DNA of 52,343 nucleotides, from the NCBI GenBank assembly GCA_004321885.1, contig SCQK01000002.1, positions 1 through 52,343 of the forward strand, read 5' to 3'. Source of the stretch: Patescibacteria group bacterium. Its GTDB lineage: Bacteria; Patescibacteriota; Patescibacteriia; Magasanikbacterales; GWA2-37-8. The notes beneath the pieces are model-generated. The model was not told the DNA's origin and searched no databases. It worked only from the letters and a program-made list of their open reading frames with translations. The translations under genes and the position numbers were made by a program. This document shows positions 31,314 to 52,104 of the stretch, one piece after another (the stretch's first letter is position 1; every line of letters starts with the position of its first letter).

Positions 31314-32360
31314 TCAGATAAAACTTTTTATCGTCCGGTAAAAACCGTCGCGCACGCTAAACCGGCATTGATAGCCAAGCTTTTGAATTTTTGCAATTGA
31401 CAGTGTGGGTCTGACTTTATTCTTGTTTTCCAAATAGTCTTTGCCGGCCGCGCGCTTTTCGTAAATCACCTTTAATTTTTTTTCCGGCCACATCGCCACG
31501 AGCAAATTCGCCAATTCGCCTATGGATATTCGCCCGTTTTCATTGCCCACATTATAACTTTCACCCCGCTTGCCGTTTAATAGCACGTTAAAAAACCCGG
31601 CGGTAGCGTCGGCAATATAACAGAAAGTGCGCACCGGCGAGCCGTCGCTTTTAATCACTATGTCTTTATTACGAACGACATTTGAAACAAACTCGGCAAA
31701 AACCCTTTTATCATTTTCCAAGTCTATTGTGGGGCCGTAGGTGTGTTCGGGCCTGACGGCCACGGCCGGCACCTGGTACTGGTGATGCCAGCACTGGCAC
31801 ATATTTTCACCCATGCGCTTGCTTTCGCCATAACAGCTTCTGATGTCCATCTGATTCAAATACCCGCTGTCTTCTTCGCTGATGAGCGGCTTGTCCATGG
31901 TCCCGCAAACTTCCCCGCTGCTAAAAAATAAAAATCCCTTGGATTTCTTGGCTCTGGCCAATTCCAACAAATTTTTGGTGCCAAAAACATTCGGGGCTAT
32001 CACTCCAACCGGGTCAATGCCGTAAAACTGGGAACTGGCCGGACTGGCGGCGTGGATGATATAATCAATGCTTCCTTCAAAATCCAATTTTTCGGTGATG
32101 TCGTCGCATCTTATATAAAAAAACGGCGAATCCAAAAAATCGCCAAATCTCTTTTTGGCTTTTTTCAAATTTCGGCAGAGGGCAATAATTTTTAAATTCA
32201 AGCCGGGAATTTTTTCGCTTAAAAACGCCAACATGAAAACCATATAAGACGCCAGCATCCCATTCGCTCCGGTAACCAAAACCGTGGCGTTTTTAAACTT
32301 CTCCCAATCTAAACCGCTTTGGTAAATAATTTCTAAATCTTCTTTAATGATATCATTCAT
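31314..32360 (-). CDS. NAD-dependent nucleotide-sugar epimerase/dehydratase (SDR)
   Basis: 348 aa with a Rossmann fold (VLVTGANGMLASYM) and a YxxxK site (YGESK). Confidence 0.6.
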   Translation of the reverse strand: MNDIIKEDLEIIYQSGLDWEKFKNATVLVTGANGMLASYMVFMLAFLSEKIPGLNLKIIALCRNLKKAKKRFGDFLDSPFFYIRCDDITEKLDFEGSIDYIIHAASPASSQFYGIDPVGVIAPNVFGTKNLLELARAKKSKGFLFFSSGEVCGTMDKPLISEEDSGYLNQMDIRSCYGESKRMGENMCQCWHHQYQVPAVAVRPEHTYGPTIDLENDKRVFAEFVSNVVRNKDIVIKSDGSPVRTFCYIADATAGFFNVLLNGKRGESYNVGNENGRISIGELANLLVAMWPEKKLKVIYEKRAAGKDYLENKNKVRPTLSIAKIQKLGYQCRFSVRDGFYRTIKSFI

Positions 32361-32361: not shown

Positions 32362-33522
32362 TTAATATATTTTGACTATTTCATTTTTTAGCTTCAATTC
32401 ATCTTTTATTTGGCGTGCCACCTCTTCCTGATAAGAAAAAGTTGAGATTAAAATGGGGGCGTTTTCTTTGATTTCTCGCGGAGACTTGATTTCAACCCCG
32501 TTGATTTTCTTTCCGTGATATTTGACGTTTGAATCCACGAAATACAATACCTTGGCCAGGTCCAGGCCGGCGCCCACCAGGCGCTGGGTGTGCGTGCCCA
32601 CGCCCCAAATGATTATTTTTTCGTGCTTGCCCAAAACTTCGCTCAAAAACTTGTTCACCTCGATGTCCAGTTGCGCGCATTTTGATATGTAGTCGCCGAG
32701 TTTCTTCTCGGTAATATCATCTTTGACAATTTCAGACTTAAGTTGAGGGGAAAACTTTGCTAAAACAAAAATGTCCGGGTCTATCGTCTGATTGACCGTG
32801 TTTTCATTTTTTTGCATTTCCACGATTTCAAAACCAAACTTCCCCAACAAATTTTTTAAGGACACATCGCTGAAATAATCAATATGCTCTATGCTGAACT
32901 GCTGAAACGGGGTAAAAATATACGAATCAAAACGCGTCGCGTCCGGCACCTCCACAAACAACAGACCGCCTTCGTTTAATAATGACTGAATTTTATCCAC
33001 GGAGCCGCTAAAATCCACCAGGTGCTCCAATACAGCTGACAAAATTATTACGTCAAATTTGTTCTCCGCGCTAAAATTGGAAATTGTGTCAGCGACGGCG
33101 TCAATGCCGTAGAGTTCCTTTACTGTTTTGACGCAAGTCGGCGAAGGGTCAATGCCCAAAAGATTGACGTAGCCTTTTTCCTTGAGCATATTGAGCAGAC
33201 AGCCAGTGGAGCATCCAATGTCCACTATTTTGGCGCGCTTGTCTTTGAGATGGGGAACCAAAAAATCAATAATCTTTTTAAAATATTTTTGGTAATCCTC
33301 CGAAACAACGCCATCCTTATAATTAAACTCCCACTTGGACATTATTTCATAGTATTTATTAAATTCCTCTTGTCCGGGAATATTATCAGCAAAAACAAAA
33401 CCGCATTTTTGGCACACCACAACATCATAGCCGTCCATTATGGCAATGGCTTTATTGCCGAAATTCTGTCTAAAAAATTTTTTCTTTCCCTCGGATAAAC
33501 AAATCGGACAAGGCCTAAGCAT
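32362..33522 (-). CDS. NDP-hexose C-methyltransferase-like (TcaB9/TylC3 architecture: Zn-ribbon plus SAM-MT plus C-terminal domain)
   Basis: 386 aa with an N-terminal Cys4 zinc ribbon (CPICLS...CQKCGFVF), a class I SAM motif (IVDIGCSTGCLL) and a C-terminal C-methyltransferase-like domain. Confidence 0.55.
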   Translation of the reverse strand: MLRPCPICLSEGKKKFFRQNFGNKAIAIMDGYDVVVCQKCGFVFADNIPGQEEFNKYYEIMSKWEFNYKDGVVSEDYQKYFKKIIDFLVPHLKDKRAKIVDIGCSTGCLLNMLKEKGYVNLLGIDPSPTCVKTVKELYGIDAVADTISNFSAENKFDVIILSAVLEHLVDFSGSVDKIQSLLNEGGLLFVEVPDATRFDSYIFTPFQQFSIEHIDYFSDVSLKNLLGKFGFEIVEMQKNENTVNQTIDPDIFVLAKFSPQLKSEIVKDDITEKKLGDYISKCAQLDIEVNKFLSEVLGKHEKIIIWGVGTHTQRLVGAGLDLAKVLYFVDSNVKYHGKKINGVEIKSPREIKENAPILISTFSYQEEVARQIKDELKLKNEIVKIY

Positions 33523-33524: not shown

Positions 33525-34544
33525 TTAAGATTGATAATGTTGTTTTAACCTTTCAGCAGCGCTGTTTAAGTTATCCTCCGGGAACAATCTGTATTTAACA
33601 ATATTGCAGTCCGCGCATGGCCCGCCCAAGATTTTGGCTCCTTCCAGCATTGTCCTTCTAAATTTTTGAAAGACAGGACCATTCCAGATTTCGGTTACTG
33701 ATTCTTTGTTGCAATCGCCCATAATGCCCGGATAATCCCAAGAATAGCAAGGAACAACCTTTCCGTCCGGATTGATTTGCATGTGAAAAAAAGGCTGGGG
33801 GCAAATTTTAACTTCCGAAACAGGCAGGCCAAACTGGGTTAGGTTCATTTCTTTGGCGCCGGGCATTTCTTCGTAATTCACACCGGCGTGGATGGGCACG
33901 GTATGCTCAACGGCTATAGAATCGCAAATGTCTCCAAAAATATCATAAAATTTTTCTTCGTCTTCTTTGTTGTCCAAAGCCGTGTCCACGATTTTGAAAT
34001 AGGCGTGCGCTTGGCCCTTGTGCTCGTAAAAATATCGTAAATTTCCCACGAATTTTTCAAAATCCAAATTAGCTTGGGAAATTTCTTGATATTTTTCCGC
34101 CGTAGTGCCCTGCAAAGAAACCACCAGCCGGTTCAACCCGGCAACGAGCAAGGCGTCGCTCATTTGCGGGGTAAGCAAAGAGGCGTTGGTTAAAATTTCA
34201 ATAACATTCGCTATCTTTTTTTCGGCCGTGTAGCGCACCATTTCCACAATGTCTTTATGCAAAAGCGGCTCGCCGATGCCGACAAAACGGATAACCTTGA
34301 TTTTGCCGGGGAATTTGGCCATGTCATCCACGCATTTTTTGTACAAACTTAAATCCATCATTATTTTATCGGAAATAAACCCGCGCTTGGAAGGCTCCAC
34401 TGAAAAAATACAATAACAACACTTAAAAACACAGGCGTAAATGGGGAAAATTTGTACAGCAAAAGGCGTGTCCAAAGGAAGCGCTTCCGAGAGTGGAGTT
34501 CTTTTGCCTCCCGGGGCTTGTCCACCTATATTTTTTGCTTTCAT
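33525..34544 (-). CDS. Radical SAM enzyme with C-terminal SPASM/twitch domain
   Basis: The CX3CX2C motif (CVFKCCYC) and a C-terminal Cys-rich auxiliary cluster region (PCYSW...GGPCADC) are present. The start is trimmed to MKAKNIGG (ATG at 34544), which overlaps the upstream gene stop as ATGA. Confidence 0.7.
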   Translation of the reverse strand: MKAKNIGGQAPGGKRTPLSEALPLDTPFAVQIFPIYACVFKCCYCIFSVEPSKRGFISDKIMMDLSLYKKCVDDMAKFPGKIKVIRFVGIGEPLLHKDIVEMVRYTAEKKIANVIEILTNASLLTPQMSDALLVAGLNRLVVSLQGTTAEKYQEISQANLDFEKFVGNLRYFYEHKGQAHAYFKIVDTALDNKEDEEKFYDIFGDICDSIAVEHTVPIHAGVNYEEMPGAKEMNLTQFGLPVSEVKICPQPFFHMQINPDGKVVPCYSWDYPGIMGDCNKESVTEIWNGPVFQKFRRTMLEGAKILGGPCADCNIVKYRLFPEDNLNSAAERLKQHYQS

Positions 34545-36211
34545 ACCAAGGGCGCTAACGCGAATTGCTCGGCGTATTTTTTCCAAAATGCCGATTGAGA
34601 AACTATGGCATTATATTTTGACCTGTATTCATCGTACTTATCCGCCTGGTTCATCATTTTATAACATTTGGCCGCGAAATAATAAGCAAAGGCATGGTCG
34701 TCTCTCGCTTGAATCGTGTTGGCAAAACCCTTCAGGGCCGTGGCATAATTGCCCAGCCGGAATTCCGTGTTGAGCGCGAAATTAAGTTCCAGATTCATGG
34801 TATAGGCTTTTTCCTGAATATATTCCGGGGTAAAATCATCGGTCCCGATAACCGCTCTCTTAAAATCACAGCTCATGTAATCCCCCTTGATAAAATTTTT
34901 CTGCAGGCACGTATCCAGCATTTCACTGCCCACCAGGGGCGTGGCCATGCTGATTCTAAACCAGGAGGCGTTAAGCGTTTTCAAAAAAGCCAGGGCATCT
35001 TCAATATCCTGTTTGGTTTCCCCGGGCAAACCGATGAGTATGGACACGTCCGAAGCAATGCCCAGCGCGCGACAATCGCGCAGAACCCGCGACACTATGG
35101 AGAGATTAAGCGGCTTGTGCATAATCTCGCGCAGGACCCGTTCACTGCCCGATTCCACTGACAGTATCAAATTATCCATGCCGGTGCTTTTTAGCGCTTC
35201 CAGCATTTTATAATCCAGCGCGTACAAGGCCAAAGAAGACGGGAAAAAAGACGTAAGCTTCAACTCGTTTAAGATATTCACGATTTCAAAAGCCCTGTGC
35301 CTGTTCACCAGCAAATGGTCGTCAAAAAACACCGCGGTCTGGGCGCCGTACTCGTCCCGCAGGCGCATCAAGTCCTCGCGCACTCTTTTCAAACTGTGAA
35401 AGCGCACGACCCGGCCGTGCACGGTGTGCGAAGCGCAAAAACAGCATTTATGCGGGCATCCCCGCGACGTCATTATGGGCATGCCTTTTTTTTGCCGTTC
35501 TTTTTCCAGGGGAAACAGGCCCAACAGCGAATGCTCGCGGTAATCATCCGCGTTGAGAATGCTGAAATCATAAAATGGAATTTCATCCAAATCTTCAATA
35601 AAATCAAACTGGAACATCTGGTTGTTTTCGGCTTTTTCCCTCGTAATCCAGCTAAGATGATTGCGCAGTAATGCTTTTTTATCCCCGGCTTTGACCAGCG
35701 CGAGCAGGGGTTTTTCCGCCTCGCCATAGCAAATCGCGTCAAAGCAGTCGCTGGCCTTAAACATTTCCCGGTACATATTGGTTGGCACCCCGCCGCCGGC
35801 CATGAGCATAGACGCGGGGAAAATTTTGCGCGCCGTTGCCGCCAAATCCAGCATATTGTAATAGGCCGGGGCAAACAGCGCGGATATGCCAACCATGGTG
35901 GGAGCGAAATCTTTCCACTCTGGCGCGGAAAGAGTTTCAAAAAATAATTCGGCAAAAGAATTATAATTAAAACTTTCTATTTTATTCAAAACCACGTTAA
36001 AATCCAGCAGCCTGACTTCCACCGGCGCGTTTTTTTTCAAATAAGCGCTCAGCGAAATAAGCCCGATAGGCATTTCGGTAAGCACGCTACCGTAGTTTCC
36101 CGTCCTTTTTTGCACGACGCGCTCATTAAAAGCGGGCCGAACAAAACTTTCAAACTTAATGTAAGGCGGGACGATAAATAAAATTCGTTCCATAGTAATA
36201 GACTTATTCAT
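34541..36211 (-). CDS. Cobalamin-binding (class B) radical SAM enzyme
   Basis: It has an N-terminal B12-binding Rossmann-like domain and a radical SAM core (SRGCPHKCCFCAS). The start could be MNKS (36211), MERIL (36193), or the annotated 36262. Length is about 555-573 aa. Confidence 0.7.
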   Translation of the reverse strand: MNKSITMERILFIVPPYIKFESFVRPAFNERVVQKRTGNYGSVLTEMPIGLISLSAYLKKNAPVEVRLLDFNVVLNKIESFNYNSFAELFFETLSAPEWKDFAPTMVGISALFAPAYYNMLDLAATARKIFPASMLMAGGGVPTNMYREMFKASDCFDAICYGEAEKPLLALVKAGDKKALLRNHLSWITREKAENNQMFQFDFIEDLDEIPFYDFSILNADDYREHSLLGLFPLEKERQKKGMPIMTSRGCPHKCCFCASHTVHGRVVRFHSLKRVREDLMRLRDEYGAQTAVFFDDHLLVNRHRAFEIVNILNELKLTSFFPSSLALYALDYKMLEALKSTGMDNLILSVESGSERVLREIMHKPLNLSIVSRVLRDCRALGIASDVSILIGLPGETKQDIEDALAFLKTLNASWFRISMATPLVGSEMLDTCLQKNFIKGDYMSCDFKRAVIGTDDFTPEYIQEKAYTMNLELNFALNTEFRLGNYATALKGFANTIQARDDHAFAYYFAAKCYKMMNQADKYDEYRSKYNAIVSQSAFWKKYAEQFALAPLV

Positions 36212-37304
36212 TCTCAAACAATCGCGGGTCTTCGTGAAACGGCTTCCGTGTTTTGTCTTCATCCGTAAAAACCTCGGCGCACGGCACCGGCAATGGCTTG
36301 CCGTAAACGCGCGGCTCCAGATATTTTTTCATGAATGCGCGGTCTTCGGCAATGGTGCAGGTGTCCACGTACTCGCCGAAATACTTGATGTCAAACCCGC
36401 GCTTAATAATGTCTTTCAGCGGCTCTTGCAAAACATTGCCGATGGACACGTGAATGTAGGGGCAGGGCAAAACATCGCCGTATTGGGTGACGGAAAACAT
36501 GCCTTTCAAAGCAATACAGCCCATATTCAAGCCATAGGCCGGGGTCAAATGCGTGAAGACCTTGTATTTTTTTTCCAGCTCGCGCATATAGGCCATGTCT
36601 TTTTTATCCACCAGGCCGTCATATTTTCTTTCCCAGTTGCCCACGGGCTTGGCATAGCTGACAAATACGCCAATGCCCTTATCAGTAAAGTATTCCAAAA
36701 ATTTTATGAACTCATCGGAATACAAACGGTCTTTCCAAACAACGGTCTGCATAAAAACATCCAGCCCGGCGGTCTTGGCATTATCCACCGCTTTCAGCAC
36801 GCGCTCGTATGCGCCGGGCGCGTGCCGAAACTCATCATGGCTTTTGGCGTCAAAGCTGTCCAGGCTGATTTGCATGCGGTCCACGCCAATGCTTTTGAGA
36901 TGCTTGGCGCGCTCTGCGGTCAGCAGAAAGCCGTTGCTGTCGCAGTTGATGTAAAATTTTTGCGGGTCAATGGCCGCCACCAGGGCGTCAAAATCCTTGA
37001 AAACGAGCGGCTCGCCGCCAGTGATGGTTACCCGCGCCAAACCCAGCTCGTCGGCCTGCCGAAAGAGCTCGCGCACGTCCGCGATGGTCATCTCGCGGGC
37101 GCCGTCGCTGCGGCTCTGAAATCTTTTGATGGAGCAATGCTCGCACTTGAAATTGCAGGTGTAATTGTATTGAAATTGAATAATGGCAATGCTTTCGCCG
37201 CGCCTAATTTTTTCGTCAAATTTCAAAATTTTTTCGTAGACGAGCGGCTTATTTTCTTTCAGATAATTGCGCTTGCCCTGTTCACGCTGGGAAAGTTGCT
37301 CCAT
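36204..37304 (-). CDS. Radical SAM enzyme with SPASM domain
   Basis: 366 aa with CX3CX2C (CNFKCEHC) and C-terminal auxiliary-cluster cysteines (CPYIH...C...C). Confidence 0.7.
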   Translation of the reverse strand: MEQLSQREQGKRNYLKENKPLVYEKILKFDEKIRRGESIAIIQFQYNYTCNFKCEHCSIKRFQSRSDGAREMTIADVRELFRQADELGLARVTITGGEPLVFKDFDALVAAIDPQKFYINCDSNGFLLTAERAKHLKSIGVDRMQISLDSFDAKSHDEFRHAPGAYERVLKAVDNAKTAGLDVFMQTVVWKDRLYSDEFIKFLEYFTDKGIGVFVSYAKPVGNWERKYDGLVDKKDMAYMRELEKKYKVFTHLTPAYGLNMGCIALKGMFSVTQYGDVLPCPYIHVSIGNVLQEPLKDIIKRGFDIKYFGEYVDTCTIAEDRAFMKKYLEPRVYGKPLPVPCAEVFTDEDKTRKPFHEDPRLFENE

Positions 37305-37312: not shown

Positions 37313-37375
37313 TGAGTGAACAAAATTGTTTTGAATATCAAAACAATTTTTGAACGAATTAGATTATATGCCTAA
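37313..37375. promoter_or_regulatory. Two perfect hairpins in the ddhB-rSAM intergenic spacer (13-bp stem AAAATTGTTTTGA/TCAAAACAATTTT and TATATGCCT-AA-AGGCATATA)
   Basis: Seen directly in the sequence. The first hairpin lies about 20 nt upstream of the rSAM start codon on the minus-strand mRNA. Confidence 0.4.
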
Positions 37376-38350
37376 AGGCATATATTTTTTATTGTTAATT
37401 TTGTTTTGATACCAGGCAAATGTTTCTTTGATTCCTTCCGCAAACGGGTAGCGCGATTGCCAACCCAACACCTTGGCCGCTTTTTCAAAATTAAGGCTCT
37501 GCTCGGGAATTTCATTTTTTTGATTGTTCAAAATTTCGTGTTTAATTTTTACGCCGATAATGTCGGAAATTTTGGCCACCAAATCCAAAACCGAAAAATT
37601 CTGGCCCGAGCTGAAGTTAAACGCCTCGCCCCTGGCCGCGGCAATGTTTTCGGCCAGGCAAAGATAGCCGTCCACCACGTCTGGCGCGTACACATAATCC
37701 CTCTTAAAATGCCCGTCGCTGCGGATTTGTAAAACTGAATTTTCCAGCGCGGCTTTCATTATCCCCGGGATAATGCGGTTGAAATTCAAATCACCGGGCC
37801 CGTAGATATTGCCGAACCGGCTCACAGTGGCCGGCAGGCCGTAGGTTTTGGCGTATGTTTGCGCGAGCAAATCAGCGCAGGATTTGGACGCGTCATAAGG
37901 ATGATCGCCGGCCAGGGCCTGATTTTCCTCGGCCAAAAGGCAGTGCTTGCCATAGGCCTTGTCGCTGGAAGCCACTATCACGGCGCGGGTAGAGGGCGAT
38001 AAACGCGCGGCTTCCAAGATATTGACCGTGCCCATGATATTTGTATCCAATGTTTCGTAAGGATTAACATAGGCCGTGGGCACGATGGGCTGGGCCGCCA
38101 CGTGAAAAATATAATTTATTTCATGCTTGGAAATTAAATCAAACATCCTTTCCTTGTCTTTCAAGTCTCCGTACGAGCAAACCACCTGCTCATCCAATTT
38201 TTCCGAATAAAACAAAGACAACGGATCGCGGCTGCGGCACAAACAAACGATTTTAGCGGGCTTTAATGCCAACAGCCGGCTCACCAGATGCGCACCGACC
38301 AGTCCGGCGCCGCCGGTAACAAAAATATTTTGTCCGGTTAAATGCGACAT
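37364..38350 (-). CDS. ddhB: CDP-glucose 4,6-dehydratase-like SDR
   Basis: 328 aa with a Rossmann fold (IFVTGGAGLVGAHL) and a YxxxK site (YDASK). It lies immediately downstream of the cytidylyltransferase. Confidence 0.65.
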   Translation of the reverse strand: MSHLTGQNIFVTGGAGLVGAHLVSRLLALKPAKIVCLCRSRDPLSLFYSEKLDEQVVCSYGDLKDKERMFDLISKHEINYIFHVAAQPIVPTAYVNPYETLDTNIMGTVNILEAARLSPSTRAVIVASSDKAYGKHCLLAEENQALAGDHPYDASKSCADLLAQTYAKTYGLPATVSRFGNIYGPGDLNFNRIIPGIMKAALENSVLQIRSDGHFKRDYVYAPDVVDGYLCLAENIAAARGEAFNFSSGQNFSVLDLVAKISDIIGVKIKHEILNNQKNEIPEQSLNFEKAAKVLGWQSRYPFAEGIKETFAWYQNKINNKKYMPLGI

Positions 38351-39162
38351 AGAGGATTTGTTTTTGTTTCATGCCAAACTTTCCAAAACGGGTCTTTGTG
38401 CCACAGCTCGTTCATGTCCTCCACTTCCTTATACGTATCCATGCATTTCCACTTGCCCTGATGCGCGTAAATAGAAAGCTGACCTGCCCTGGCCAGGGGA
38501 GCAAAGATTGATTCAATCATGCTATTTTCAGTCAACAAGTCAAAGATGTCTTTCTTGAATATCATAAAGCCGCCGTTGACATAATCAGAATCGCCCGACC
38601 GCACTTCATTGTAATCAGTCACCTTGTGCTGAAAAAAACCGCGCAATTTTTTGGTCTGATGGTCTATGTCCAGCATGCCAAAGCGCGAAGTGAGCTTGAT
38701 GCCGGTAATGGTGCCCAAAGTATTCTGATTTTTATGAAAATTGAGCAAATCCTGGATATTGATGTCTCCTACCCCGTCGCCATAGGTTACCATAAATTCT
38801 TCATCGCCGTCCAGATATGGCCGCAGGCGGCGCACGCGCTCGCCGGTCAGGCTCTCGGGGCCGGTTTCGGCGAAGGTTATTTTGAAATGGTCGCAATCAT
38901 TGTTGTGAAAGGTGACTTCGTGATTGTGAGTGTCCAGCGTAAAATCATTCGCCAGACTGCGCCAATTCAAAAAATACTGCTTGATCATATCGCCCTTGTA
39001 GCCCAGCGCCAGAATAAATTCATTGAAGCCGTAATGGGCGTATATTTTCATGATATGCCACAATATCGGCTTGCCGCCCACCAAAACCAGCGGCTTTGGC
39101 TTAAATTCCGTTTCCTCCTTCATGCGCGTGCCTATGCCGCCGCATAAAATAATGGTTTTCAT
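38338..39162 (-). CDS. ddhA: Glucose-1-phosphate cytidylyltransferase
   Basis: 274 aa with N-terminal MKTIILCGGIGTRMKEETEFKPKPLVLVGGKPILWHIMKIYAHYG, closely matching RfbF/DdhA. Confidence 0.85.
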   Translation of the reverse strand: MKTIILCGGIGTRMKEETEFKPKPLVLVGGKPILWHIMKIYAHYGFNEFILALGYKGDMIKQYFLNWRSLANDFTLDTHNHEVTFHNNDCDHFKITFAETGPESLTGERVRRLRPYLDGDEEFMVTYGDGVGDINIQDLLNFHKNQNTLGTITGIKLTSRFGMLDIDHQTKKLRGFFQHKVTDYNEVRSGDSDYVNGGFMIFKKDIFDLLTENSMIESIFAPLARAGQLSIYAHQGKWKCMDTYKEVEDMNELWHKDPFWKVWHETKTNPLCRI

Positions 39163-43597: not shown

Positions 43598-44320
43598 CTA
43601 CCGGACCAACGAATTCTGAGCAACGAGACCTCCGTCCACCACGATCTCTTGGCCGACGATATAGGAGGCCGCGGGTGATGCCATGAAAGTGACCACCGTG
43701 GCGACCTCTTTCGGATTCGCGAACCGGCCGATCGGAATCTTCTTCCCCCAATCGGAAAGTTCGGTCTCGCTCATGCGCATCGTGCCACCGGTGTCGCGAG
43801 TAGCGCCGGGGGCGACTGCGTTCACACGGATTCCGAAGGGCGCCAGCTCCACGGCGCGGCATCGCATATACCCGACGAGACCGCACTTGGACACGTCATA
43901 CGCGCAATCGCCGGCAAAGGCGACCCGCGAATGCACCGAAGTGATGAAGATGATTACGCCAGCACGGCGCTTCTTCATTCCCGGAATCACCGCTTCGGTG
44001 ACGTTACGCGTGCCGTTCAGGTTGGTAGCAATGACATTTTCCCAGTCATCGCCGCTGGTGATGGCGGCGTTGTTGACCAGGATGTCAAGGTGTCTCGTCT
44101 CCAGGCCGGAAACCTGGGTCTTGTCGCGAATGTTCACGCGCTCGTATGTCGCGCGCATACTTGCGTATGCTTCCTGCGTGACTTCATCCGCGGGCGGAGC
44201 AAGAATGTCAAAGTTTAACACTCTTGCCCCCAGGGACAAGAACTCATTTACGACGGCGGCGCCGATTCCCCGCGAACCACCGGTGACCAAAACCGTCTGT
44301 CCGCTGAACTGCTTCGTCAT
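43598..44320 (-). CDS. Short-chain dehydrogenase/reductase (classical SDR, FabG-like)
   Basis: 240 aa with TGGSRGIGAAV and YxxxK (YDVSK) motifs. Its GC content and codon usage (AAG/GAG/TTC/AAC) are distinct from neighbouring genes. Confidence 0.8.
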   Translation of the reverse strand: MTKQFSGQTVLVTGGSRGIGAAVVNEFLSLGARVLNFDILAPPADEVTQEAYASMRATYERVNIRDKTQVSGLETRHLDILVNNAAITSGDDWENVIATNLNGTRNVTEAVIPGMKKRRAGVIIFITSVHSRVAFAGDCAYDVSKCGLVGYMRCRAVELAPFGIRVNAVAPGATRDTGGTMRMSETELSDWGKKIPIGRFANPKEVATVVTFMASPAASYIVGQEIVVDGGLVAQNSLVR

Positions 44321-45197: not shown

Positions 45198-45653
45198 TCA
45201 TCCCATCACCCTCTGCCAAAATCCCCTGTGCCCGTCAATAATATTCTTGGGCATGGTTTTGAAAAATCTGCCTTTTTTCGGCTTCATAATAGTCCGGCAC
45301 TCAAACACCAGCGACACTGTGTGCCCGCGCGAACCCTGGCTGCAATCATTGGCAAACAAAAATTTGGAATCGCTGACATTAATCCCCAGCTCTTTCCAGG
45401 CCACGGCCTGGATGCGTTCGTCAAAGCTCTCGCGAAAGCGCAGAAGACCGCCCGGGAAATGCCAGCCGCGCCACCACTGGTCGTCGCGCCAGGTGAGCAA
45501 CACGCCCCGCGGACTCTTTATCACCAGCTCTACGGCCGCAAAAGTTACTACGCCGAGCAGAGCTTCAAAAACCGGCTGTGGCAGGCCCTCGTGAGGGTTG
45601 TCTATTTTTTTCAGCAGGACGCAAAGCTGTTTTAATTCTTTCGCGTTTAACAT
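45198..45653 (-). CDS. Nudix hydrolase, GDP-mannose mannosyl hydrolase (Gmm)-like, second copy
   Basis: 151 aa with motifs VLLTWRD and GWHFPGGLLRFRESFDERIQAVAWKELG, paralogous to 14423..14875. Confidence 0.6.
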   Translation of the reverse strand: MLNAKELKQLCVLLKKIDNPHEGLPQPVFEALLGVVTFAAVELVIKSPRGVLLTWRDDQWWRGWHFPGGLLRFRESFDERIQAVAWKELGINVSDSKFLFANDCSQGSRGHTVSLVFECRTIMKPKKGRFFKTMPKNIIDGHRGFWQRVMG

Positions 45654-45690: not shown

Positions 45691-46734
45691 TCAACGCGCG
45701 CGAACCATAATAACAATGGCAAAAAAAAGAAAAATTACGGCGGCAATCATCCGCGCGCGGGGCTTGCCGCCAATGCCTTTCCATTCTCCGGAAATAAAGC
45801 CGGCGCCCTGGCCGCCCAAGATCTGCATGGCCTGGGCAATACCCACTCCCACCGAAGCCCCGACCGCTCCCAAAGCCACCATGCCCAGACCCTGCAAAGC
45901 AAAAGCGACAATCAGTTGCGAACCTATCAGAAGAGCCAGCGCGGCCTCGGATTTTTTTTGAAAAAAAACCGACCAAGACCTTTTTCTTATGATCAGCCAA
46001 ACCGGATAGGCCAAATTTATCACGGCGCCGCCGACAAATCCGCCGGCCCAGACGCCAAAATTGGCGGATATAACTCCGGCGCCCTGGGCTTTCATGGCCG
46101 CGATAATCGGCCCCTGGCTGTAGACAAAAGCCAGCGACGGACCCACTGAAAGCGCTCCGGCGATGATGGCCATTACCAGTCCGCCGCGAAAACTACCCGC
46201 TGGCGCGCAGACAACCGTTGGATATTTTTCAGACCGCTGATTTGCGATTTTTTCCCGGCCAAAGCCGGCCAACGCCGCCAAAAACACGCCGCCCAGCATT
46301 ATCGCCACGCCCGAAAGCACGGTTAGCCCGGCCAGAGAAAAAATATCCGGGGAATTTTCAAATAATCCGGTGCCTTTGAAAATCATGGGCAATATCACGG
46401 CCAGAGAAGCGCCCACGCCCGTCAGTATGGCGCCGGTCAAAGACAAACCAATGCGCTCGGCACAGCGGCCGGCCAGTACATTGGCCACTCCCCAGCCCAC
46501 CGCGAAAAGATTGGAAATAATTAGAGGCTTCCAGCCGACCGCGGCATAAGCGGCCCACGGATTGCCCACCCCGGCCAGCACCACTACCCATGGGATAATA
46601 AAAAGCGGCAACATACCGATAAACCAGTAGTGCTCAAACTTGTACTGGCGCATTTTTTTCATCGGCCACAAGGCGCTGCCGGTGCCCAGGCCGGCGATGG
46701 CGGAAAGCGCGACTCCTGAAAATATGGAAGACAT
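45691..46734 (-). CDS. DMT-superfamily sugar:proton symporter (RhaT-like)
   Basis: 347 aa with 10 TM helices and an RhaT-like repeat organisation. Confidence 0.5.
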   Translation of the reverse strand: MSSIFSGVALSAIAGLGTGSALWPMKKMRQYKFEHYWFIGMLPLFIIPWVVVLAGVGNPWAAYAAVGWKPLIISNLFAVGWGVANVLAGRCAERIGLSLTGAILTGVGASLAVILPMIFKGTGLFENSPDIFSLAGLTVLSGVAIMLGGVFLAALAGFGREKIANQRSEKYPTVVCAPAGSFRGGLVMAIIAGALSVGPSLAFVYSQGPIIAAMKAQGAGVISANFGVWAGGFVGGAVINLAYPVWLIIRKRSWSVFFQKKSEAALALLIGSQLIVAFALQGLGMVALGAVGASVGVGIAQAMQILGGQGAGFISGEWKGIGGKPRARMIAAVIFLFFAIVIMVRAR

Positions 46735-46817: not shown

Positions 46818-48542
46818 CTAAGCAGAAGATGAATTTACATATGGTATTTCCGCGTACAGGCCGGCGGACCATTTCTCGGGCATTTTTTGATCGGGATCAA
46901 TCATCAGCTCGCAGACAATCGGCCCGTCAAAATCCATAACTTTTTTTACCTTGTCCAACTCGCTGTCATTGTTAATCCGCTCAAAGGCAATGCCCCAGGC
47001 CGGAATTAGTTTGCTGAAATCCGGAATGCTCACTCCTGTCTCTGGGTCTGAAGCAAAAATCTTTTTAAAGAAATGCGTGTGCGTGGCCCGGATGGAATAA
47101 TAGCCATTGTTGTTGACAATAAAAATTTTAAGCGGCAGTTTGTGATGAACCACGGTTTGCAATTCCTGTAAATTCATCATTATGGAACCGTCGCCTTCAC
47201 TGCAGATGACGGCCTGGCGGCCACGCGCGATGCTGGCGCCAATGGCCATGGGCAGGCCCGAACCCATATGACCCAAACCGGCGTTGGTGAGAAACCGCTG
47301 GCCGCGGGAAACTTTAAGCGCCTGGTGAGGGGTAAGCGAAGCCATGCCATTGGCCGTGGTGATATCCAAACCTGGATTCCGGCTCCCGGGCCGGAATGAC
47401 ATGTTGCATGCGCCTATCTCGCGCCAAAATTTGTAGACATTCAAATATTTCGGGTCGCAGGCCAAATCAGCGGGATTGAGCGGCTCCACTTTCACGTCCC
47501 AGCGATTGAGGGTGATGTCTTGTTTGTATAATTCATCTAAAAATACTTTGGCATCGCAATGCACAGCCAAATCCACGGATAATTGTTTACGTTTCATTTC
47601 ATTGTCATCAATATCAACCATTATTTTTTTTGCGTTCGGCGCGAATTTATTGTAGTCCCATGAAACTTGCGTGAGTTGCATACGCTCGCCCACGATAAGC
47701 AGAAGGTCGCAGTTGTCTGCCGCGTAATTGGCGGCTTTGTTACCCGGCATTCCCTGCCTGCCCAAATAATAGGGATAGTCGTAAGTGACTAAATCATCAG
47801 CCGTAAAAATTGGCGTAACCGCGTTGATTTTAAATTTATCCAAAGACTTCCACAAAATTTCTTCGCCCCCGGCCAGACGTATGCCATTGCCGGCGATGAG
47901 CAGGGGGCGTTTGGCTTCGCGTAAAAGTGTGACGATTTTTTCCATTGTCGCGCGCTCCAGCGAACCTGGATTCCAGCTCTCGGGCTGGAATGATAAAAGT
48001 GTGTCCGGGTCAATTTCCGCGGCCTGCACGTCCAAAGGAATTTCCACAAACACCGGGCCGGGCCGGCCGTGGGTAGCTAAATACAGGGCTTTTTCCAGAT
48101 GATAGCGAATTTCATTTTCATTTTCCACGGTTACGGCGTACTTGCAAACCGGCTTGGCAATATCAATGACGTTTAATTCCTGAAAGCCGATGGCGCGCAC
48201 TACTGGTTGTCCGTTGGCATCGCGAGGCGTGATGTCCGCTCGCTTCACTTGTCCGGCAACAACAAACATCGGGATACTGTCCAGCCAGGCCCCGGCCATG
48301 CCGGTTACCGCGTTGGTGCCGCCCGGGCCCGTGGTTACCAGAGCGACCCCCGGAGAATTTTTTATCCTGCCATAGCCCTCGGCCGCGATGGCCACTGCCT
48401 GCTCGTGATGACAACAGTAAGATTTGAGGTTTGACCGGCCCAGTGAATCCACCAGGTGCATAATGCCGCCGCCCGAAACCAAAAAGACCGAGTCAGCCAC
48501 TTTTTGTTCAATAAATTGCCAGACGTAGTCGGATAGTTTCAT
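46818..48542 (-). CDS. Thiamine-diphosphate-dependent enzyme of the acetolactate-synthase/YerE family
   Basis: 574 aa with three ThDP-enzyme domains: an N-terminal Pyr domain (VFLVSGGGIMHL...GPGGTNAVTGMAGAW), a central domain, and a C-terminal PP domain with GDGS...NN ThDP-binding motif (GDGSIMMNLQEL...NNNGY). Confidence 0.75.
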   Translation of the reverse strand: MKLSDYVWQFIEQKVADSVFLVSGGGIMHLVDSLGRSNLKSYCCHHEQAVAIAAEGYGRIKNSPGVALVTTGPGGTNAVTGMAGAWLDSIPMFVVAGQVKRADITPRDANGQPVVRAIGFQELNVIDIAKPVCKYAVTVENENEIRYHLEKALYLATHGRPGPVFVEIPLDVQAAEIDPDTLLSFQPESWNPGSLERATMEKIVTLLREAKRPLLIAGNGIRLAGGEEILWKSLDKFKINAVTPIFTADDLVTYDYPYYLGRQGMPGNKAANYAADNCDLLLIVGERMQLTQVSWDYNKFAPNAKKIMVDIDDNEMKRKQLSVDLAVHCDAKVFLDELYKQDITLNRWDVKVEPLNPADLACDPKYLNVYKFWREIGACNMSFRPGSRNPGLDITTANGMASLTPHQALKVSRGQRFLTNAGLGHMGSGLPMAIGASIARGRQAVICSEGDGSIMMNLQELQTVVHHKLPLKIFIVNNNGYYSIRATHTHFFKKIFASDPETGVSIPDFSKLIPAWGIAFERINNDSELDKVKKVMDFDGPIVCELMIDPDQKMPEKWSAGLYAEIPYVNSSSA

Positions 48543-48545: not shown

Positions 48546-49460
48546 CTAGAAAATAAGAAATTCAATCGCTTTATATACGCGGTCAACTGGTGATAACTCG
48601 GCATCCAACAATATATACGGCGGCTGATCCGGATTTTGTTTTTGGCCGGCAAACTCGTCAGAATTGGTAAAGCTGTAGGGGAAGCTCAACAGGCCTTCAT
48701 CATTGCCGAGCGGCATATCCCCAAAAGTGGCCACTTCATCTTCTTTAAAACCCAGTATCTTCAGCACGGTTTTAATGGCCACGGTCTTGCTGTCTTCATG
48801 CAGTTTTTTTGTCATGTGCACATAGGTATCATCGCCGGCGGCCGCGGTGAGCTCATTGCCCAATTCGGCGTTAAGCTCAGCCACCAGCTGGGCATGAATT
48901 GTTTTGTCTTTGGGCAAAACAAAAGTTACCTTGGCCTGCTCGGTGAAAAATTCCCCGTCAGCCGGGCGGCAGACGTCAATCATTTCAGCCGGCACATAGC
49001 CCTCCCAGCTATCCAACAAAAATTTTCTAAATGTCTCAATGCCTTTCTCGGCCAAGTCAGCGCGAGTGATGCCCAGATTGGCGTAGACTTTTTTCCCGAT
49101 TTCCACCGCTTTCAAAATTTGCGGCATTTCCAGGCCGTGATTATATATCTCAATCAACTGGTCTTTTTTTACCTCGTACAATGTGGTGCTATTGCCCCCG
49201 GCCACAAAGCTGGGCACAGACACATTTTCTTTATTCAACAGCTCCTGCAAGGGCGGCACCAACACCTTGATGGCTGTGGCCGCGCGCGCGGAAATAAAAG
49301 CCACTGATTTGTTTTTCTTTAAAATTTTATCCACCAACTCAAAAACCTGGGGCTGTTTGTGCGTGGCATCGCCGAGCGTGCCATCGTAATCCAAGCCGAA
49401 CAATTTGATTTTTGTTTTTGCTTCCTCTAATTTGACCTGCGCGATTTCGGAGTGATTCAT
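48546..49460 (-). CDS. HAD-superfamily phosphatase (HAD-IIB, sugar-phosphate phosphatase-like)
   Basis: 304 aa with motif I DYDGTL and motif IV GDMPLGNDEG. Confidence 0.65.
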   Translation of the reverse strand: MNHSEIAQVKLEEAKTKIKLFGLDYDGTLGDATHKQPQVFELVDKILKKNKSVAFISARAATAIKVLVPPLQELLNKENVSVPSFVAGGNSTTLYEVKKDQLIEIYNHGLEMPQILKAVEIGKKVYANLGITRADLAEKGIETFRKFLLDSWEGYVPAEMIDVCRPADGEFFTEQAKVTFVLPKDKTIHAQLVAELNAELGNELTAAAGDDTYVHMTKKLHEDSKTVAIKTVLKILGFKEDEVATFGDMPLGNDEGLLSFPYSFTNSDEFAGQKQNPDQPPYILLDAELSPVDRVYKAIEFLIF

Positions 49461-49464: not shown

Positions 49465-49585
49465 TTAGCTCAAGTAAGCGCCGTCTGGATGTGCTCGCAG
49501 CGGCTTGTGGCGCCCAGAGCGCCACGCCCGAGCCCTCGCGGGCGAGGAAAGCGAGAGCACATCAAGACGGCGCGAACGAGAAAAT
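49465..49585. ncRNA. GC-rich, highly structured intergenic element with nested inverted repeats (GCGCCGTCTGGATGTGCTCGC ... GCGAGAGCACATCAAGACGGCGC). It is a candidate structured RNA or REP-like element
   Basis: A long imperfect inverted repeat encloses two inner hairpins (TGGCGC-CCAGA-GCGCCA and GCCCTCGCGGGC). Its GC content is far above the flanking sequence, and no coding potential is apparent. Confidence 0.35.
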
Positions 49586-51144
49586 TAAAGTACCCAATAA
49601 GTTAAAATTGTTTTACGATTTTTGTTTTGCGCGATGCTTTCGTCGGCGTAGTAAGAATCATCCTTATAGTGAGTGGTGGAAATTTCTTCAAACACGCAGC
49701 CGTTTTTGGTGGAAAACCCGTGCGCTAAATCGCGCTCTATCGTCACAATATCGCCGGGCCCGCTTTCTTTGATGACGCCGTTTAGGTCAAAAATCGCGTC
49801 GCCCCACAAGATATGAAAGGTCTCTTCTTTTAATTTATGCGAGTGCACCGGGTGTTTTTGGCCGGGCAGAAGTACAATCAATTTTTTGCAATATTCGCGG
49901 TTGAAACAATTTATCAGGCTGGCGCCGTATTCGTAGAATTTTTCTATGCCATAATGATGCGACAGCTCAAATTCCCACTTGTTTGATACCGGGATATTGG
50001 CGTTTTTGAGCAGCTGGTTGATTTGGGAAATGGCGGTATAAACCTGCTCGCGCAATTCCAGACAATTTACGTCCGCGGCCATGATGGGCTCGTTTTTCTT
50101 GAAGTCGCGGCTGGCCGTAAACACCGTGTATTTGGACAGGTCGTTGGCCAAAACCTGCCCGGCCATGTTGGGAAACGCGAAAAAAGAATTTTTGATGTCC
50201 ACGCGCTCGCCCGGCCTGATATCGCCGGCCGCGAACACTCCGCGCTGAAACTGGCGGATGTCGGCCAGCTCCTGGGGCGCGAAATCATGGCGCCTCCCGG
50301 AAACGCCGCAAGCGCGAAACGCCTCGGCCGCGGCTTCCAGCCATTTTTGTACCTGGTCTGGCGTGGCTGAATAGCCGTTTACGGAATACTTTTCGCTTTT
50401 AGCCGAGACATGCTTTTCAAAAGTGCCGGCGCCTTTGGCCACGGCCAGCTTTACCGCGTCAAAATTGTCGGCGTGTTCGTGGGTGGAAAAACCAATGGTT
50501 ATTTCCGGGTACCGCTCGCGCAACAAAGTAATCTGATTGAATTGCAGCTGCTCGTGGGGGGTGGGATACTGCCCGATGCAGTGCTCCAGCGCGAATTTTT
50601 TATTGCGGTTGATGAAAAAACTCACCACGCGGTCAATTTTTTCCAAAGCCGCGCCGCCGGTGGAGGCGATAATCGGCTTATCGGTTTTGGCAATGGCCTC
50701 CAAAAGCGTCCAGTCGGTAAAAGAACAGCTGGCGACTTTAATAATATCATAGCCGTGGCGCGCCACATTTTCCACGGACTTTTCGTCAAAAGGCGTGCAC
50801 ATGGAAATGAAGCCCAGCTTGTCGGCCTCGCTCTTTAATATCAAAAATTCCTCGCCCGTCAACCGCGCCTCGGAAAATCTTTTGATATATTTCAAATCCA
50901 TCCGCTCTTTATAATCCGGATGGATAAAAGTGTCCAGGTCGCGATACTGGAACTTGAACGCGAACCGGAAACCCAAATCCGGAGCAATAAAATTTTTACA
51001 GACCTCGCCAATCTCCCTGATTATTTTCAAGCCAAACTCCACATCGCCCATGTGGTTGTTGGCCAGCTCAAAAATAAAAAGAGGCGCCGCCGTTCCTCCT
51101 CTTTGCGCGAAAATCGCGTCAATTTTTTCCGCCATAATATACAT
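49585..51144 (-). CDS. NeuB-family nonulosonate (sialic-acid-like) synthase fused to a C-terminal cupin domain
   Basis: 519 aa. Residues 1-350 carry a NeuB/SpsE PEP-condensing TIM barrel plus SAF domain. Residues 400-519 form a cupin fold (HSHKLKEETFHILWGDAIFDLNG...). The start overlaps the fcl stop as TAATG. Confidence 0.65.
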   Translation of the reverse strand: MYIMAEKIDAIFAQRGGTAAPLFIFELANNHMGDVEFGLKIIREIGEVCKNFIAPDLGFRFAFKFQYRDLDTFIHPDYKERMDLKYIKRFSEARLTGEEFLILKSEADKLGFISMCTPFDEKSVENVARHGYDIIKVASCSFTDWTLLEAIAKTDKPIIASTGGAALEKIDRVVSFFINRNKKFALEHCIGQYPTPHEQLQFNQITLLRERYPEITIGFSTHEHADNFDAVKLAVAKGAGTFEKHVSAKSEKYSVNGYSATPDQVQKWLEAAAEAFRACGVSGRRHDFAPQELADIRQFQRGVFAAGDIRPGERVDIKNSFFAFPNMAGQVLANDLSKYTVFTASRDFKKNEPIMAADVNCLELREQVYTAISQINQLLKNANIPVSNKWEFELSHHYGIEKFYEYGASLINCFNREYCKKLIVLLPGQKHPVHSHKLKEETFHILWGDAIFDLNGVIKESGPGDIVTIERDLAHGFSTKNGCVFEEISTTHYKDDSYYADESIAQNKNRKTILTYWVL

Positions 51145-52103
51145 TATTTTAAGTTACAATTTGATTGATACCAATCATAGGTCGTTTTGAGTCCTTGGTC
51201 AAGCTCTATTTTGTGCCGCCAGCCCAGGGCCCGGATGCGGGAAATATCCAGTGTCCTCCGGAAAACGCCGTCCGGCTTGGCCGGGTCCCATTCAATTTTT
51301 CCCTCATAGCCCGTAATTTTTTGAATCAGCTCGGCCAAATCCTTTATCGTGATATCCTGGCCCATGCCCAGATTCGCGAAAATTTCTCCCCGCTCGTTCT
51401 GTTCTTTGGTCGGATTAAAATGCTCCATTAAAAATATACAGCCGTCGGCCATATCGTCCGCGTGCAAAAATTCCCGCCAGGGCGCGCCCGTGCCCCAGAG
51501 CGTCACTTTTTTTTCTCCACTTGTTTTGGCCTCGTGAAATTTGCGCAGCAGGGCCGGAATCACGTGCGAATTTTGCAAATCAAAATTATCGCCGGGCCCG
51601 TACAAGTTGGCCGGCATCACCGCGATAAAATTAGCGCCGTATTGGCGGTTATAACTCTGGCACATTTTCAGCCCGGCAATTTTGGCGACAGCGTAAGGTT
51701 CGTTGGTCGGCTCCAGCGGCCCGGACAGCAGATATTCCTCTTTTATCGGCAACTGGCAAACCTTTGGGTAGATGCAGGCCGAACCCAAAAACAAAAGCTT
51801 CCTTACATTATATATATAGGAAGCGTGAATGACGTTGTTTTGTATGGCCAGATTATTATAAATAAAATCAGCCGGATAGGTGTTGTTGGCGCCGATGCCG
51901 CCCACCTTGGCCGCGGCCAAAAAAACGTATTCCGGTTTTTCAGCCGCAAAAAAATCATTGACCGCTTTTTGCTCGCGCAAATCCAATTCTTGATGGGTTT
52001 TTAACAAAAAATTGCCAAAGCCCTCGGCCCGCAAACGGCTAACCAAAGCCGAACCCACCAATCCGCGGTGTCCGGCAACATAAACTTTGGCATTTTTTTC
52101 CAT
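51144..52103 (-). CDS. fcl: GDP-L-fucose synthase (GDP-4-keto-6-deoxy-D-mannose 3,5-epimerase/4-reductase)
   Basis: Start trimmed to MEKNAKVYVAGHRGLVGSALVSRL (ATG at 52103), because the longer ORF runs through tRNA-Ala. Fcl-specific motifs include FLGSACIYPK. Confidence 0.85.
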   Translation of the reverse strand: MEKNAKVYVAGHRGLVGSALVSRLRAEGFGNFLLKTHQELDLREQKAVNDFFAAEKPEYVFLAAAKVGGIGANNTYPADFIYNNLAIQNNVIHASYIYNVRKLLFLGSACIYPKVCQLPIKEEYLLSGPLEPTNEPYAVAKIAGLKMCQSYNRQYGANFIAVMPANLYGPGDNFDLQNSHVIPALLRKFHEAKTSGEKKVTLWGTGAPWREFLHADDMADGCIFLMEHFNPTKEQNERGEIFANLGMGQDITIKDLAELIQKITGYEGKIEWDPAKPDGVFRRTLDISRIRALGWRHKIELDQGLKTTYDWYQSNCNLK

Positions 52104-52104
52104 G

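Follow-up and report, generated by a model that had tools for sequence, protein, structure and literature searches.

A putative sugar-branching carboligase of the YerE/JanthE type in a glycan gene region of Patescibacteria

The locus and its ThDP-dependent enzyme

We analysed a stretch of 52,343 nucleotides from a Patescibacteria group bacterium (contig SCQK01000002.1 of assembly GCA_004321885.1; hereafter the window), which carries a gene for a thiamine diphosphate (ThDP)-dependent enzyme at 46818..48542 on the reverse strand. The gene is one open reading frame (ORF) with an ATG start encoding 574 amino acids; its borders in the ORF listing coincide exactly with those of the initial annotation of this DNA, and a 100% identical database entry of 574 amino acids is named 'thiamine pyrophosphate-binding protein'. 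On balance we favour the view that it encodes a YerE/JanthE-like carboligase which builds a C-branched deoxysugar for a surface glycan, using a donor derived from a neighbouring NeuB-type synthase.

Three nucleotides upstream of the ThDP gene lies a HAD-IIB (Cof-type) phosphatase gene (48546..49460; Pfam, NCBIfam), a spacing at which the two are probably co-transcribed. The next gene (49585..51144) encodes a fusion, here called NeuB/cupin, of a NeuB-type synthase condensing phosphoenolpyruvate (PEP; residues ~19–360) with a D-lyxose/D-mannose-isomerase-like cupin (~364–519), assigned from Pfam and structure. Further upstream lies an fcl-like (GDP-L-fucose synthase-like) short-chain dehydrogenase/reductase (SDR) gene (474 bits against a cut-off of 500). 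As called (51144-52181), this last ORF is overlapped over its first 26 codons by a tRNA-Ala(ggc) gene (52104-52177, reverse strand), so that translation probably begins at the ATG at 52103 (MEKNAKVY...), giving a gene at 51144..52103; the fcl–NeuB/cupin–HAD–ThDP operon probably starts directly downstream of the tRNA. On the other side of the ThDP gene are a RhaT-family sugar/H+ symporter-like membrane protein (45691..46734; Pfam/NCBIfam), found in the window and not in the related loci described below, and a small protein with a weak match to Nudix (45198..45653), possibly a hydrolase of nucleoside diphosphate sugars, with 67% identity to the product of the gene after the ThDP gene in related locus L001. 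The initial annotation had named all five neighbours (fcl, NeuB-like synthase, HAD, Nudix and symporter), and each of them was found again, on the strand of the ThDP gene.

In Pfam, the ThDP protein matches TPP_enzyme_N (residues 1–105), TPP_enzyme_M (201–338) and TPP_enzyme_C (399–545) with E-values of 1e-28 to 1e-34. Alignment places the catalytic glutamate within HHEQ (residues 45–48), a canonical GDG...NN ThDP motif at 450–479, followed immediately by the clade motif GYYSIRATH, and Lys557 at the position of K567 in JanthE. Both the general form of the clade motif, GY.SI[KR].T[QH], and this lysine are common to the JanthE-like group, JanthE included, and neither occurs in acetohydroxyacid synthases (AHAS). 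A sequence search of the PDB returned 8rph as the best match (347 bits, full length), ahead of 5ahk (231 bits), which we take to be PpYerE (Hampel et al. 2018, as cited in PMC12247030), and of AHAS entries (at most 220 bits). The window protein is ~37% identical to JanthE over its full length, ~30% to PpYerE and 27–29% to Escherichia coli IlvB and IlvI. Entry 8rph is JanthE from Janthinobacterium sp. HH01, termed a YerE-like ThDP enzyme, for which K567 was reported as a hotspot for tertiary-alcohol formation (PMC12188165).

A neighbour-joining tree was computed from 98 sequences (16 of the window clade, 76 distant relatives, JanthE and PpYerE as rebuilt from printed alignments, the E. coli enzymes IlvB and IlvI, and an outgroup, Gcl); it is a distance tree in which AHAS is represented by two sequences only, and YpYerE, ErwE and MMAR_2332 are not included. 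The window clade was monophyletic (bootstrap 100/100) and was nested within the group that JanthE makes up with the 76 ddh-linked relatives (100/100), PpYerE being outside; the sister branch of this JanthE-like group consisted of PpYerE and one Rhizobium paralogue. IlvB, IlvI and Gcl were split from the window/JanthE/PpYerE group in 100/100 bootstraps. The Rhizobium metagenome-assembled genome (MAG; L053) has two ThDP paralogues, one JanthE-like and beside a NeuB gene, the other grouping with PpYerE. Placement of the window protein with YerE-like, ketone-accepting carboligases is thus supported, in line with what the initial annotation had proposed, and the activity predicted for it is to join a decarboxylated alpha-keto acid to a ketone, with a tertiary alcohol as the product.

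The protein belongs to the acetolactate synthase (ALS) family, and one rival explanation is a biosynthetic or catabolic ALS, or another known family function such as glyoxylate carboligase or sulfoacetaldehyde acetyltransferase (Xsc). The top-scoring NCBIfam models are indeed those of the ALS large subunit (E 1e-100), and the AHAS-like FQE motif is kept. All these models nevertheless score ~200–700 bits below their curated cut-offs (TIGR00118, 337 bits against 538; PRK08978, 342 against 738; other ALS models further below theirs), IlvB and IlvI lie outside the clade at 100/100, and Xsc, an alternative considered at the outset, was not among the 25 best NCBIfam matches. In tblastn searches with E. 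coli queries (E<=1e-3), no homologue of ilvN, ilvH, ilvM, ilvC or ilvD was detected between the ends of the window or in 87 related loci (1.54 Mb), which extends the earlier remark that no ilvC, ilvD or ilvN stands alongside. Curated cut-offs, the tree with its two AHAS sequences and the absence of ilv genes from the DNA searched together effectively refute ALS and the other known ALS-family functions, and by these criteria the protein is an ALS-family enzyme but no biosynthetic acetolactate synthase. Neither of the two outcomes by which the initial annotation would have been overturned, a nearby ilv set or clustering with ALS or Xsc, was thus seen.

Conserved partners of the ThDP gene

Six close relatives of the window protein (63–74% identity) were gathered, from Magasanikbacteria, Woesebacteria, other Patescibacteria and one MAG labelled Bathyarchaeia. 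A phosphatase gene stands beside the ThDP gene in all six, a DegT/E1-type gene lies a few genes away in all six, and a NeuB/cupin gene lies at most 10 kb away in five. In the majority there are also genes for radical SAM (S-adenosylmethionine)/SPASM enzymes, for a methyltransferase with a Zn-ribbon, for a small Nudix-like protein and for an ArnC-like GT2 accompanied by GtrA; orthologues in the window and in L001 share 50–78% identity. Gene fusions join some of the same partners. Protein P0091 (787 amino acids, from a 4.9-kb metagenome contig) consists of a ThDP enzyme (residues 1–556, 65% identical to the window protein) and a C-terminal HAD_2-type phosphatase (561–771), while P0127 (863 amino acids, from a 963-kb contig) is a triple fusion of an extended-SDR epimerase/dehydratase (1–350) with NeuB and cupin. 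In L001 a 355-amino-acid SDR is encoded directly upstream of NeuB/cupin, and from this position and the P0127 fusion we suggest that the SDR may help to make the donor. The window counterpart of this SDR is an extended-SDR epimerase/reductase at 31314..32360 (reverse strand).

The association was also recovered from the opposite direction. Starting from NeuB/cupin in a Nitrospiraceae genome, a Nanoarchaeota genome and a 5-Mb genome, a three-domain ThDP gene was found within 10 kb in 3/3, and in two of them ddhA, ddhB, E1, NeuB/cupin, a small HAD-like gene and the ThDP gene form one gene run. The NeuB/cupin fusion itself is both widespread and well conserved (at least 120 clusters at 56% identity or more). 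The phosphatase in or next to the NeuB–ThDP pair varies in type (Hydrolase_3, HAD_2, NT5C-like). No CMP-sugar synthetase (CTP_transf_3) was detected in the window, in the Pfam-annotated close relatives or in 18 of 20 scanned NeuB-bearing related loci; the two loci that do contain CTP_transf_3 both have NeuB away from the ThDP gene. Reverse look-up, phosphatase, fusions, missing CMP-sugar synthetase and the widespread NeuB/cupin fusion are five points that tie NeuB to the ThDP enzyme and not to a pathway of the sialic-acid type. The initial annotation had treated the NeuB-like synthase and the HAD protein as general sugar context; they proved instead to be the most conserved partners of the ThDP enzyme.

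Enzymes of the NeuB family join PEP and an aldose into a 3-deoxy-2-ulosonic acid, in chemical terms a 4-hydroxy-2-oxo acid, and a NeuB-family synthase together with a phosphatase recalls the pair of KDN-9-phosphate synthase and KDN-9-phosphate phosphatase (KDN, 2-keto-3-deoxynononic acid). One gene away from the ThDP gene, the window thus has a type of enzyme predicted to form this class of product. Its NeuB domain and 3g8r, the structure of a NeuB-family protein of Chromobacterium, share 49% identity. In Pfam, the last ~160 residues match Cupin_2 and, just over the cut-off, Lyx_isomer, and by sequence they are related to D-lyxose/D-mannose isomerases (E 2.8e-4). In an AlphaFold model (pLDDT 90), the cupin superposes on the D-lyxose isomerases of Bacillus subtilis and Thermofilum over nearly the full length of the latter (E ~1e-10, TM-score 0.69–0.70, root-mean-square deviation (rmsd) 1.9–2.5 Å; with 2y0o, E 9e-11, TM-score 0.70, rmsd 1.9 Å), and the sequence shows residues that fit the cupin metal-binding pattern. 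A ketol-isomerase fused to the synthase, with a phosphatase beside it, suggests a route from a sugar phosphate through a free ketose to an aldose (mannose or lyxose) and on to condensation with PEP; it is equally possible that the phosphatase acts last, as in KDN-9-phosphate pathways. We infer that NeuB/cupin supplies the alpha-keto acid donor and that the HAD-IIB protein, for which no PDB sequence relative was found and whose NCBIfam subfamily matches were all below threshold, dephosphorylates either a sugar-phosphate precursor or the ulosonate phosphate.

A scan of species-representative genomes, in which matches probably arose through a shared MMNLQELQ pattern, gave 80 further loci with relatives of 38–44% identity, spread over Lachnospiraceae, Elusimicrobia, Verrucomicrobia (including Akkermansia), Gastranaerophilales, Proteobacteria, Bacteroidota, Saccharibacteria and others. 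All their ORFs were clustered, the most frequent clusters were annotated with Pfam, and counts were made on those 58 loci that reach 15 kb or more. A recurrent operon emerged, running ddhA, 4,6-dehydratase, E1, epimerase, one of three enzyme types (HpcH/HpaI aldolase, NeuB or HMGL-like aldolase), then variably an SDR with a 3-dehydroquinate synthase (DHQS)-like gene, variably a HAD gene, the ThDP gene and a GT2. Within 10 kb of the ThDP gene, E1 occurs in 37/58 loci (often in the same operon), ddhA in 30/58, NeuB in 20/58, the HpcH/HpaI aldolase in 14/58 and the HMGL/BphI-like aldolase in 4/58. The last three occupy the same operon slot across relatives, and two of them stand together in two loci only. 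No aldolase-type or DHQS-like gene was present within 10 kb in 22/58 loci, which makes it probable that part of the family works with a common metabolite, for instance pyruvate.

The SDR and DHQS-like pair was seen in ~15 loci (beside the ThDP gene in L012, L013, L015, L019, L025, L029, L041, L047, L075, L082 and L083), together with HpcH or NeuB and mostly where the HAD phosphatase is missing; the pair may remove phosphate by DHQS-type elimination rather than by hydrolysis. Replacement by this pair and the varying phosphatase type suggest that the function is conserved rather than the gene. One Nitrospiraceae contig (L093:904-2928) combines, in a single cluster, a YerE-like ThDP gene with an E1_dh plus Transket_pyr/Transketolase_C pair, i.e. 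a ThDP enzyme of the alpha-keto-acid-dehydrogenase type, which is the second class of catalyst known to branch sugars; a single pathway there may include two branching steps.

The shared slot has a precedent in the unifying scheme of Steitz et al. (2022) for acyl-branched sugars, in which a pyruvate aldolase, either ErwI (BphI/HMGL type) or MMAR_2331 (aldolase/citrate-lyase type), makes a 4-hydroxy-2-oxo acid that is decarboxylated by the ThDP enzyme ErwE, MMAR_2332 or MyGE and added to cytidine diphosphate (CDP)-4-keto-3,6-dideoxyglucose, a reductase completing the branch (PMC9306805). For MMAR_2332 and ErwE, the HpcH and HMGL types are the donor suppliers, proven or proposed, the resulting long-branched sugars are erwiniose, caryophyllose and gastriose, and ErwE rejects pyruvate (PMC9306805). 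The conserved NeuB and phosphatase partners, the aldolase slot, the ThDP–HAD fusion and the missing CMP-sugar synthetase together make a long branch derived from an ulosonic acid likelier than an acetyl branch. Our literature search for links between NeuB-type enzymes and YerE-like enzymes or branched sugars found nothing relevant within a coverage that excluded the JanthE characterisation and the genome-mining study of YerE-like enzymes.

The acceptor side of the reaction is represented in the window by a ddhA-like glucose-1-phosphate cytidylyltransferase (38338..39162; 265 bits against a cut-off of 300), a ddhB-like SDR resembling CDP-glucose 4,6-dehydratase (37364..38350; best match TIGR02622, 195 bits against 278) and an E1 dehydrase (RfbH/DdhC; 28699..30009; 690 bits against 423), all on the reverse strand. 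The E1 protein has the iron–sulfur motif C190-X57-C248-X-C250-X7-C258, and His217 replaces the Schiff-base lysine; across the window E1 and its counterparts in 43 related loci, the C-X57-C-X-C-X7-C spacing is invariant and the active-site histidine is kept. We take these features to be the hallmarks of a true CDP-6-deoxy-4-hexulose 3-dehydrase, and the window E1 would accordingly be predicted to make the 3-deoxy-4-keto acceptor. The link drawn earlier to the ddhABC genes is much strengthened by the frequency of E1 near related ThDP genes. The stated distance of about 10 kb is roughly right, the ddhA-like and ddhB-like genes being 7.7–9.5 kb and E1 16.8 kb from the ThDP gene.

A possible pathway and its rivals

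In the pathway we propose, the ddhA-like and ddhB-like proteins and E1 (RfbH) would convert glucose-1-phosphate to CDP-4-keto-3,6-dideoxy-D-glucose, with some other electron donor replacing the missing E3. The HAD phosphatase and the isomerase-like cupin would turn a central sugar phosphate into a free aldose, e.g. D-mannose or D-lyxose, which the NeuB domain would condense with PEP to a 3-deoxy-2-ulosonic acid, a 4-hydroxy-2-oxo acid of the KDN or 3-deoxy-octulosonate type; alternatively, the phosphatase would act after condensation. The ThDP enzyme would then bind and decarboxylate this acid, and the ThDP-bound acyl-anion equivalent would add to the C4 ketone of the CDP-sugar, leaving a tertiary alcohol with a long polyhydroxy-acyl branch. 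An SDR or RmlD-like reductase would reduce the 1'-keto group, and radical SAM enzymes and methyltransferases would decorate the sugar. Finally, the ArnC-like GT2 would move the finished sugar to polyprenyl phosphate, with GtrA and a GT-C enzyme taking part in export and attachment. Candidates for the reductase and the glycosyltransferase are at hand: a classical, FabG-like SDR (43598..44320, reverse strand; ~33% identical to SDRs beside ThDP genes in 15 related loci), which is a candidate equivalent of YerF/ErwF for the 1'-keto group, the extended SDRs at 31314-32360 and 25646-26539, and the GT2 at 30367-31305.

That the ThDP enzyme is a sugar-branching carboligase acting on a CDP-ketosugar appears likely to us; for a donor made by NeuB rather than pyruvate, the evidence leaves us close to evenly divided. 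Several observations weigh against the pathway as a whole. It is built on family placement, synteny, fusions, the cupin fold and the E1 hallmarks, from which every substrate and product is deduced, and the tree lacks YpYerE, ErwE and MMAR_2332, the enzymes having physiological evidence. Neither the window nor any of the Pfam-annotated related loci encodes an E3/DdhD (AscD) reductase, so that the route to the 3,6-dideoxy-4-keto acceptor is, going by the annotation, incomplete. The ThDP block (43.6–52.2 kb) and the ddh/E1 block (28.7–39.2 kb) are 4.4 kb apart, with four unrelated genes between them (glycan genes and one opposite-strand gene), and in close relative L090 no NeuB was seen in the 10 kb around the ThDP gene. 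The pathway leaves the conserved Nudix-like protein and the radical SAM enzymes without a defined role. JanthE itself accepts pyruvate, and its physiological substrates are reported as unknown (PMC12188165). The window clade, moreover, has Thr291 where 75/76 other clade members, PpYerE and AHAS have arginine, and FQE where other clade members have DQE, two differences in the region of the active site by which its substrate may differ from theirs. We had considered reading Thr291, which corresponds to the second arginine of the AHAS motif RFDDR, as lost binding of a keto-acid acceptor; this idea was dropped since PpYerE and 75/76 clade members keep the arginine.

The initial annotation had envisaged a two-carbon branch on a ketosugar, of which the branching carboligase is supported, whereas a C2 unit from pyruvate has become doubtful given the NeuB and phosphatase partners. 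This would be the classical YerE reaction, in which pyruvate provides an acetyl branch on CDP-4-keto-3,6-dideoxyglucose while NeuB/cupin and HAD make an unrelated sugar. YpYerE performs exactly such a reaction (PMC12247030, PMC9306805), JanthE as the closest solved relative has the pyruvate activity just mentioned, and the 22 loci with neither aldolase-type nor DHQS-like genes nearby would fit it. We nonetheless regard it as rather unlikely here, with NeuB/cupin and the phosphatase being the most conserved neighbours in the window clade and refound from the NeuB/cupin side, a ThDP–HAD fusion in existence (P0091), no CMP-sugar synthetase to activate a free ulosonic acid, and NeuB sitting in the slot of the donor-forming aldolases of long-branch systems (PMC9306805). 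The tight linkage of NeuB, phosphatase and ThDP genes would equally suit a linear pathway from alpha-keto acid to aldehyde, in which a non-ligating decarboxylase converts the NeuB-derived 3-deoxy-2-ulosonic acid to a 2-deoxy-aldose used elsewhere, and domain content cannot separate ThDP decarboxylases from carboligases. Such a decarboxylase is improbable: the protein nests with ketone-accepting carboligases and not with enzymes of the pyruvate/indolepyruvate decarboxylase type, the equally tight linkage to E1, ddhA and ddhB would be left unexplained, and no activating enzyme for a free 2-deoxy-aldose is evident among the annotated genes.

More improbable still is a reversed order, in which the ThDP enzyme would first add a short aldehyde-bearing branch to the CDP-ketosugar (e.g. 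from glyoxylate or hydroxypyruvate) and NeuB would then extend the aldehyde with PEP. The aldehyde requirement of NeuB enzymes speaks for this order, which would also account for the missing CMP-sugar synthetase. It would leave the phosphatase and the NeuB-fused isomerase-like cupin without a role, and we know of no NeuB family member that acts on a nucleotide-linked aldehyde. For ErwE, the donor-first order has experimental support (PMC9306805).

Taking the pathway with a NeuB-derived donor further, we tentatively suggest that the cassette, as it occurs in Patescibacteria, some Nanoarchaeota, Nitrospirota, Omnitrophota and other uncultured lineages, might make undescribed hybrid sugars of 13 to 14 carbons: a KDN-like or 3-deoxy-octulosonate-like acid from the NeuB/lyxose-isomerase fusion would be grafted by the ThDP enzyme onto C4 of a CDP-3,6-dideoxyhexose, tailored by radical SAM enzymes and methyltransferases, and displayed on the surface via polyprenyl phosphate. 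ThDP-dependent branching of deoxysugars is known, though thinly explored, with a handful of enzymes studied. [quoted passage not shown] Ultra-small cells with a very reduced metabolism would then spend ~20 genes on one elaborate surface sugar, a candidate determinant of host attachment. The labels 'acetolactate synthase' and 'sialic acid synthase' would be misleading in such genomes.

The surrounding glycan region and comparison with known systems

From ~9.3 to 52.2 kb, the window is a single large glycan-biosynthesis region. Between ddhB and E1, on the reverse strand, it encodes a radical SAM/SPASM enzyme (36204..37304; 78% identical to its L001 counterpart), a B12-binding radical SAM enzyme (34541..36262; similar genes in related cassettes), likely a C-methyltransferase, a second radical SAM/SPASM enzyme (33525..34586; 70% identity to L001), a SAM methyltransferase with an N-terminal Zn-ribbon (32362..33522; 59%), the extended SDR related to the one in L001 and P0127, an ArnC/PgfS-like GT2 (30367..31305; 56%) and its small GtrA-like membrane partner (29981..30370), which is kept in the cassette. 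The two radical SAM/SPASM enzymes, the B12-radical SAM enzyme, the Zn-ribbon methyltransferase and the Nudix-like protein are cassette companions across phyla (33525-37304 on the reverse strand of the window; L001:256-5217; L003:3469-8257; L094:2264-4935). Between the Nudix-like gene and the classical SDR gene lies an ORF of 216 amino acids (44345-44995, reverse strand), for which no Pfam or NCBIfam match and no counterpart in any related locus was found. Nothing PEP mutase-like was seen among the annotated genes, and phosphonate-type chemistry was set aside.

Three fucosyltransferase-family genes (13566-14426, 22165-23226 and 39175-40062, reverse strand) belong to GT11 (two, alpha-1,2-fucosyltransferase family) and GT10 (one, alpha-1,3), and stand alongside fcl in this Patescibacteria cluster. 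The fcl-like SDR probably serves fucosylation, its part in the branching pathway being uncertain; fcl and the GT10/GT11 genes suggest a fucosylated surface glycan, possibly Lewis-antigen-like. The ORF at 14844-17018 (reverse strand) encodes a fusion protein of 724 amino acids, in which a membrane Acyl_transf_3 domain is joined to one of the NAD-dependent epimerase/dehydratase type. Upstream of the glycan region, translations of 1220-6323 (forward strand) reveal type IV pilus assembly genes (PilB-like ATPase, PilC-like platform and PilM/N/O-like proteins), and pilins could be a target of the glycosylation system.

Among characterised enzymes, IlvB, IlvG and IlvI share with the window protein the fold, cofactor motifs, the FQE motif and ~27–29% identity; it differs from them in having no regulatory subunit, ilvC or ilvD, and threonine for the second arginine of RFDDR. 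YpYerE and PpYerE are likewise ThDP enzymes of the ALS family and attach an acyl-anion equivalent to a ketone, and the natural acceptor of YpYerE, CDP-4-keto-3,6-dideoxy-D-glucose, is the predicted product of the window's ddhA, ddhB and E1. YerE, in contrast, takes pyruvate for a C2 branch, and its cluster has no NeuB or phosphatase partner (PMC9306805). JanthE (PDB 8rph, 8rpi and 8rpj) has the same three-domain build as the window protein, with an unusual CDG ThDP motif where the latter has the canonical GDG, and its V121, Y268, P293 and Y297 are replaced in the window protein by F, P, T and W. JanthE accepts ketones among its acceptors and alpha-keto acids of varied length as donors, and its Y268 and P293 were proposed to stabilise flavin adenine dinucleotide (FAD; PMC12188165). 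The FAD question raised initially therefore has a mixed answer: TPP_enzyme_M is present in the window protein, whereas these contact positions are Pro266 and Thr291, which leaves FAD binding uncertain.

The NeuB/PseI/LegI and KDN pathways offer a second comparison. They differ from the present loci, which have no CMP-sugar synthetase, carry a D-lyxose-isomerase-like cupin at the C-terminus of the synthase, and have this synthase firmly tied to a ThDP enzyme and to the operon of an E1 dehydrase. In gene content, the systems of ErwE, MMAR_2332 and MyGE follow the same logic: next to genes for CDP-4-keto-3,6-dideoxyglucose they have one for an enzyme whose product is a 4-hydroxy-2-oxo acid, one for a ThDP carboligase and others for an NAD(P)H reductase and a glycosyltransferase. 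Related ThDP genes adjoin those of aldolases of the HpcH type (compare MMAR_2331) or the HMGL/BphI type (compare ErwI). The window itself has, in place of a pyruvate aldolase, a NeuB-type synthase, a lyxose-isomerase-like cupin and a phosphatase; its donor would be a C8–C9 ulosonic acid, and its hosts are Patescibacteria and other uncultured lineages. What would be new here is thus a known type of reaction fed by another module for supplying the donor, in lineages not previously discussed in this connection.

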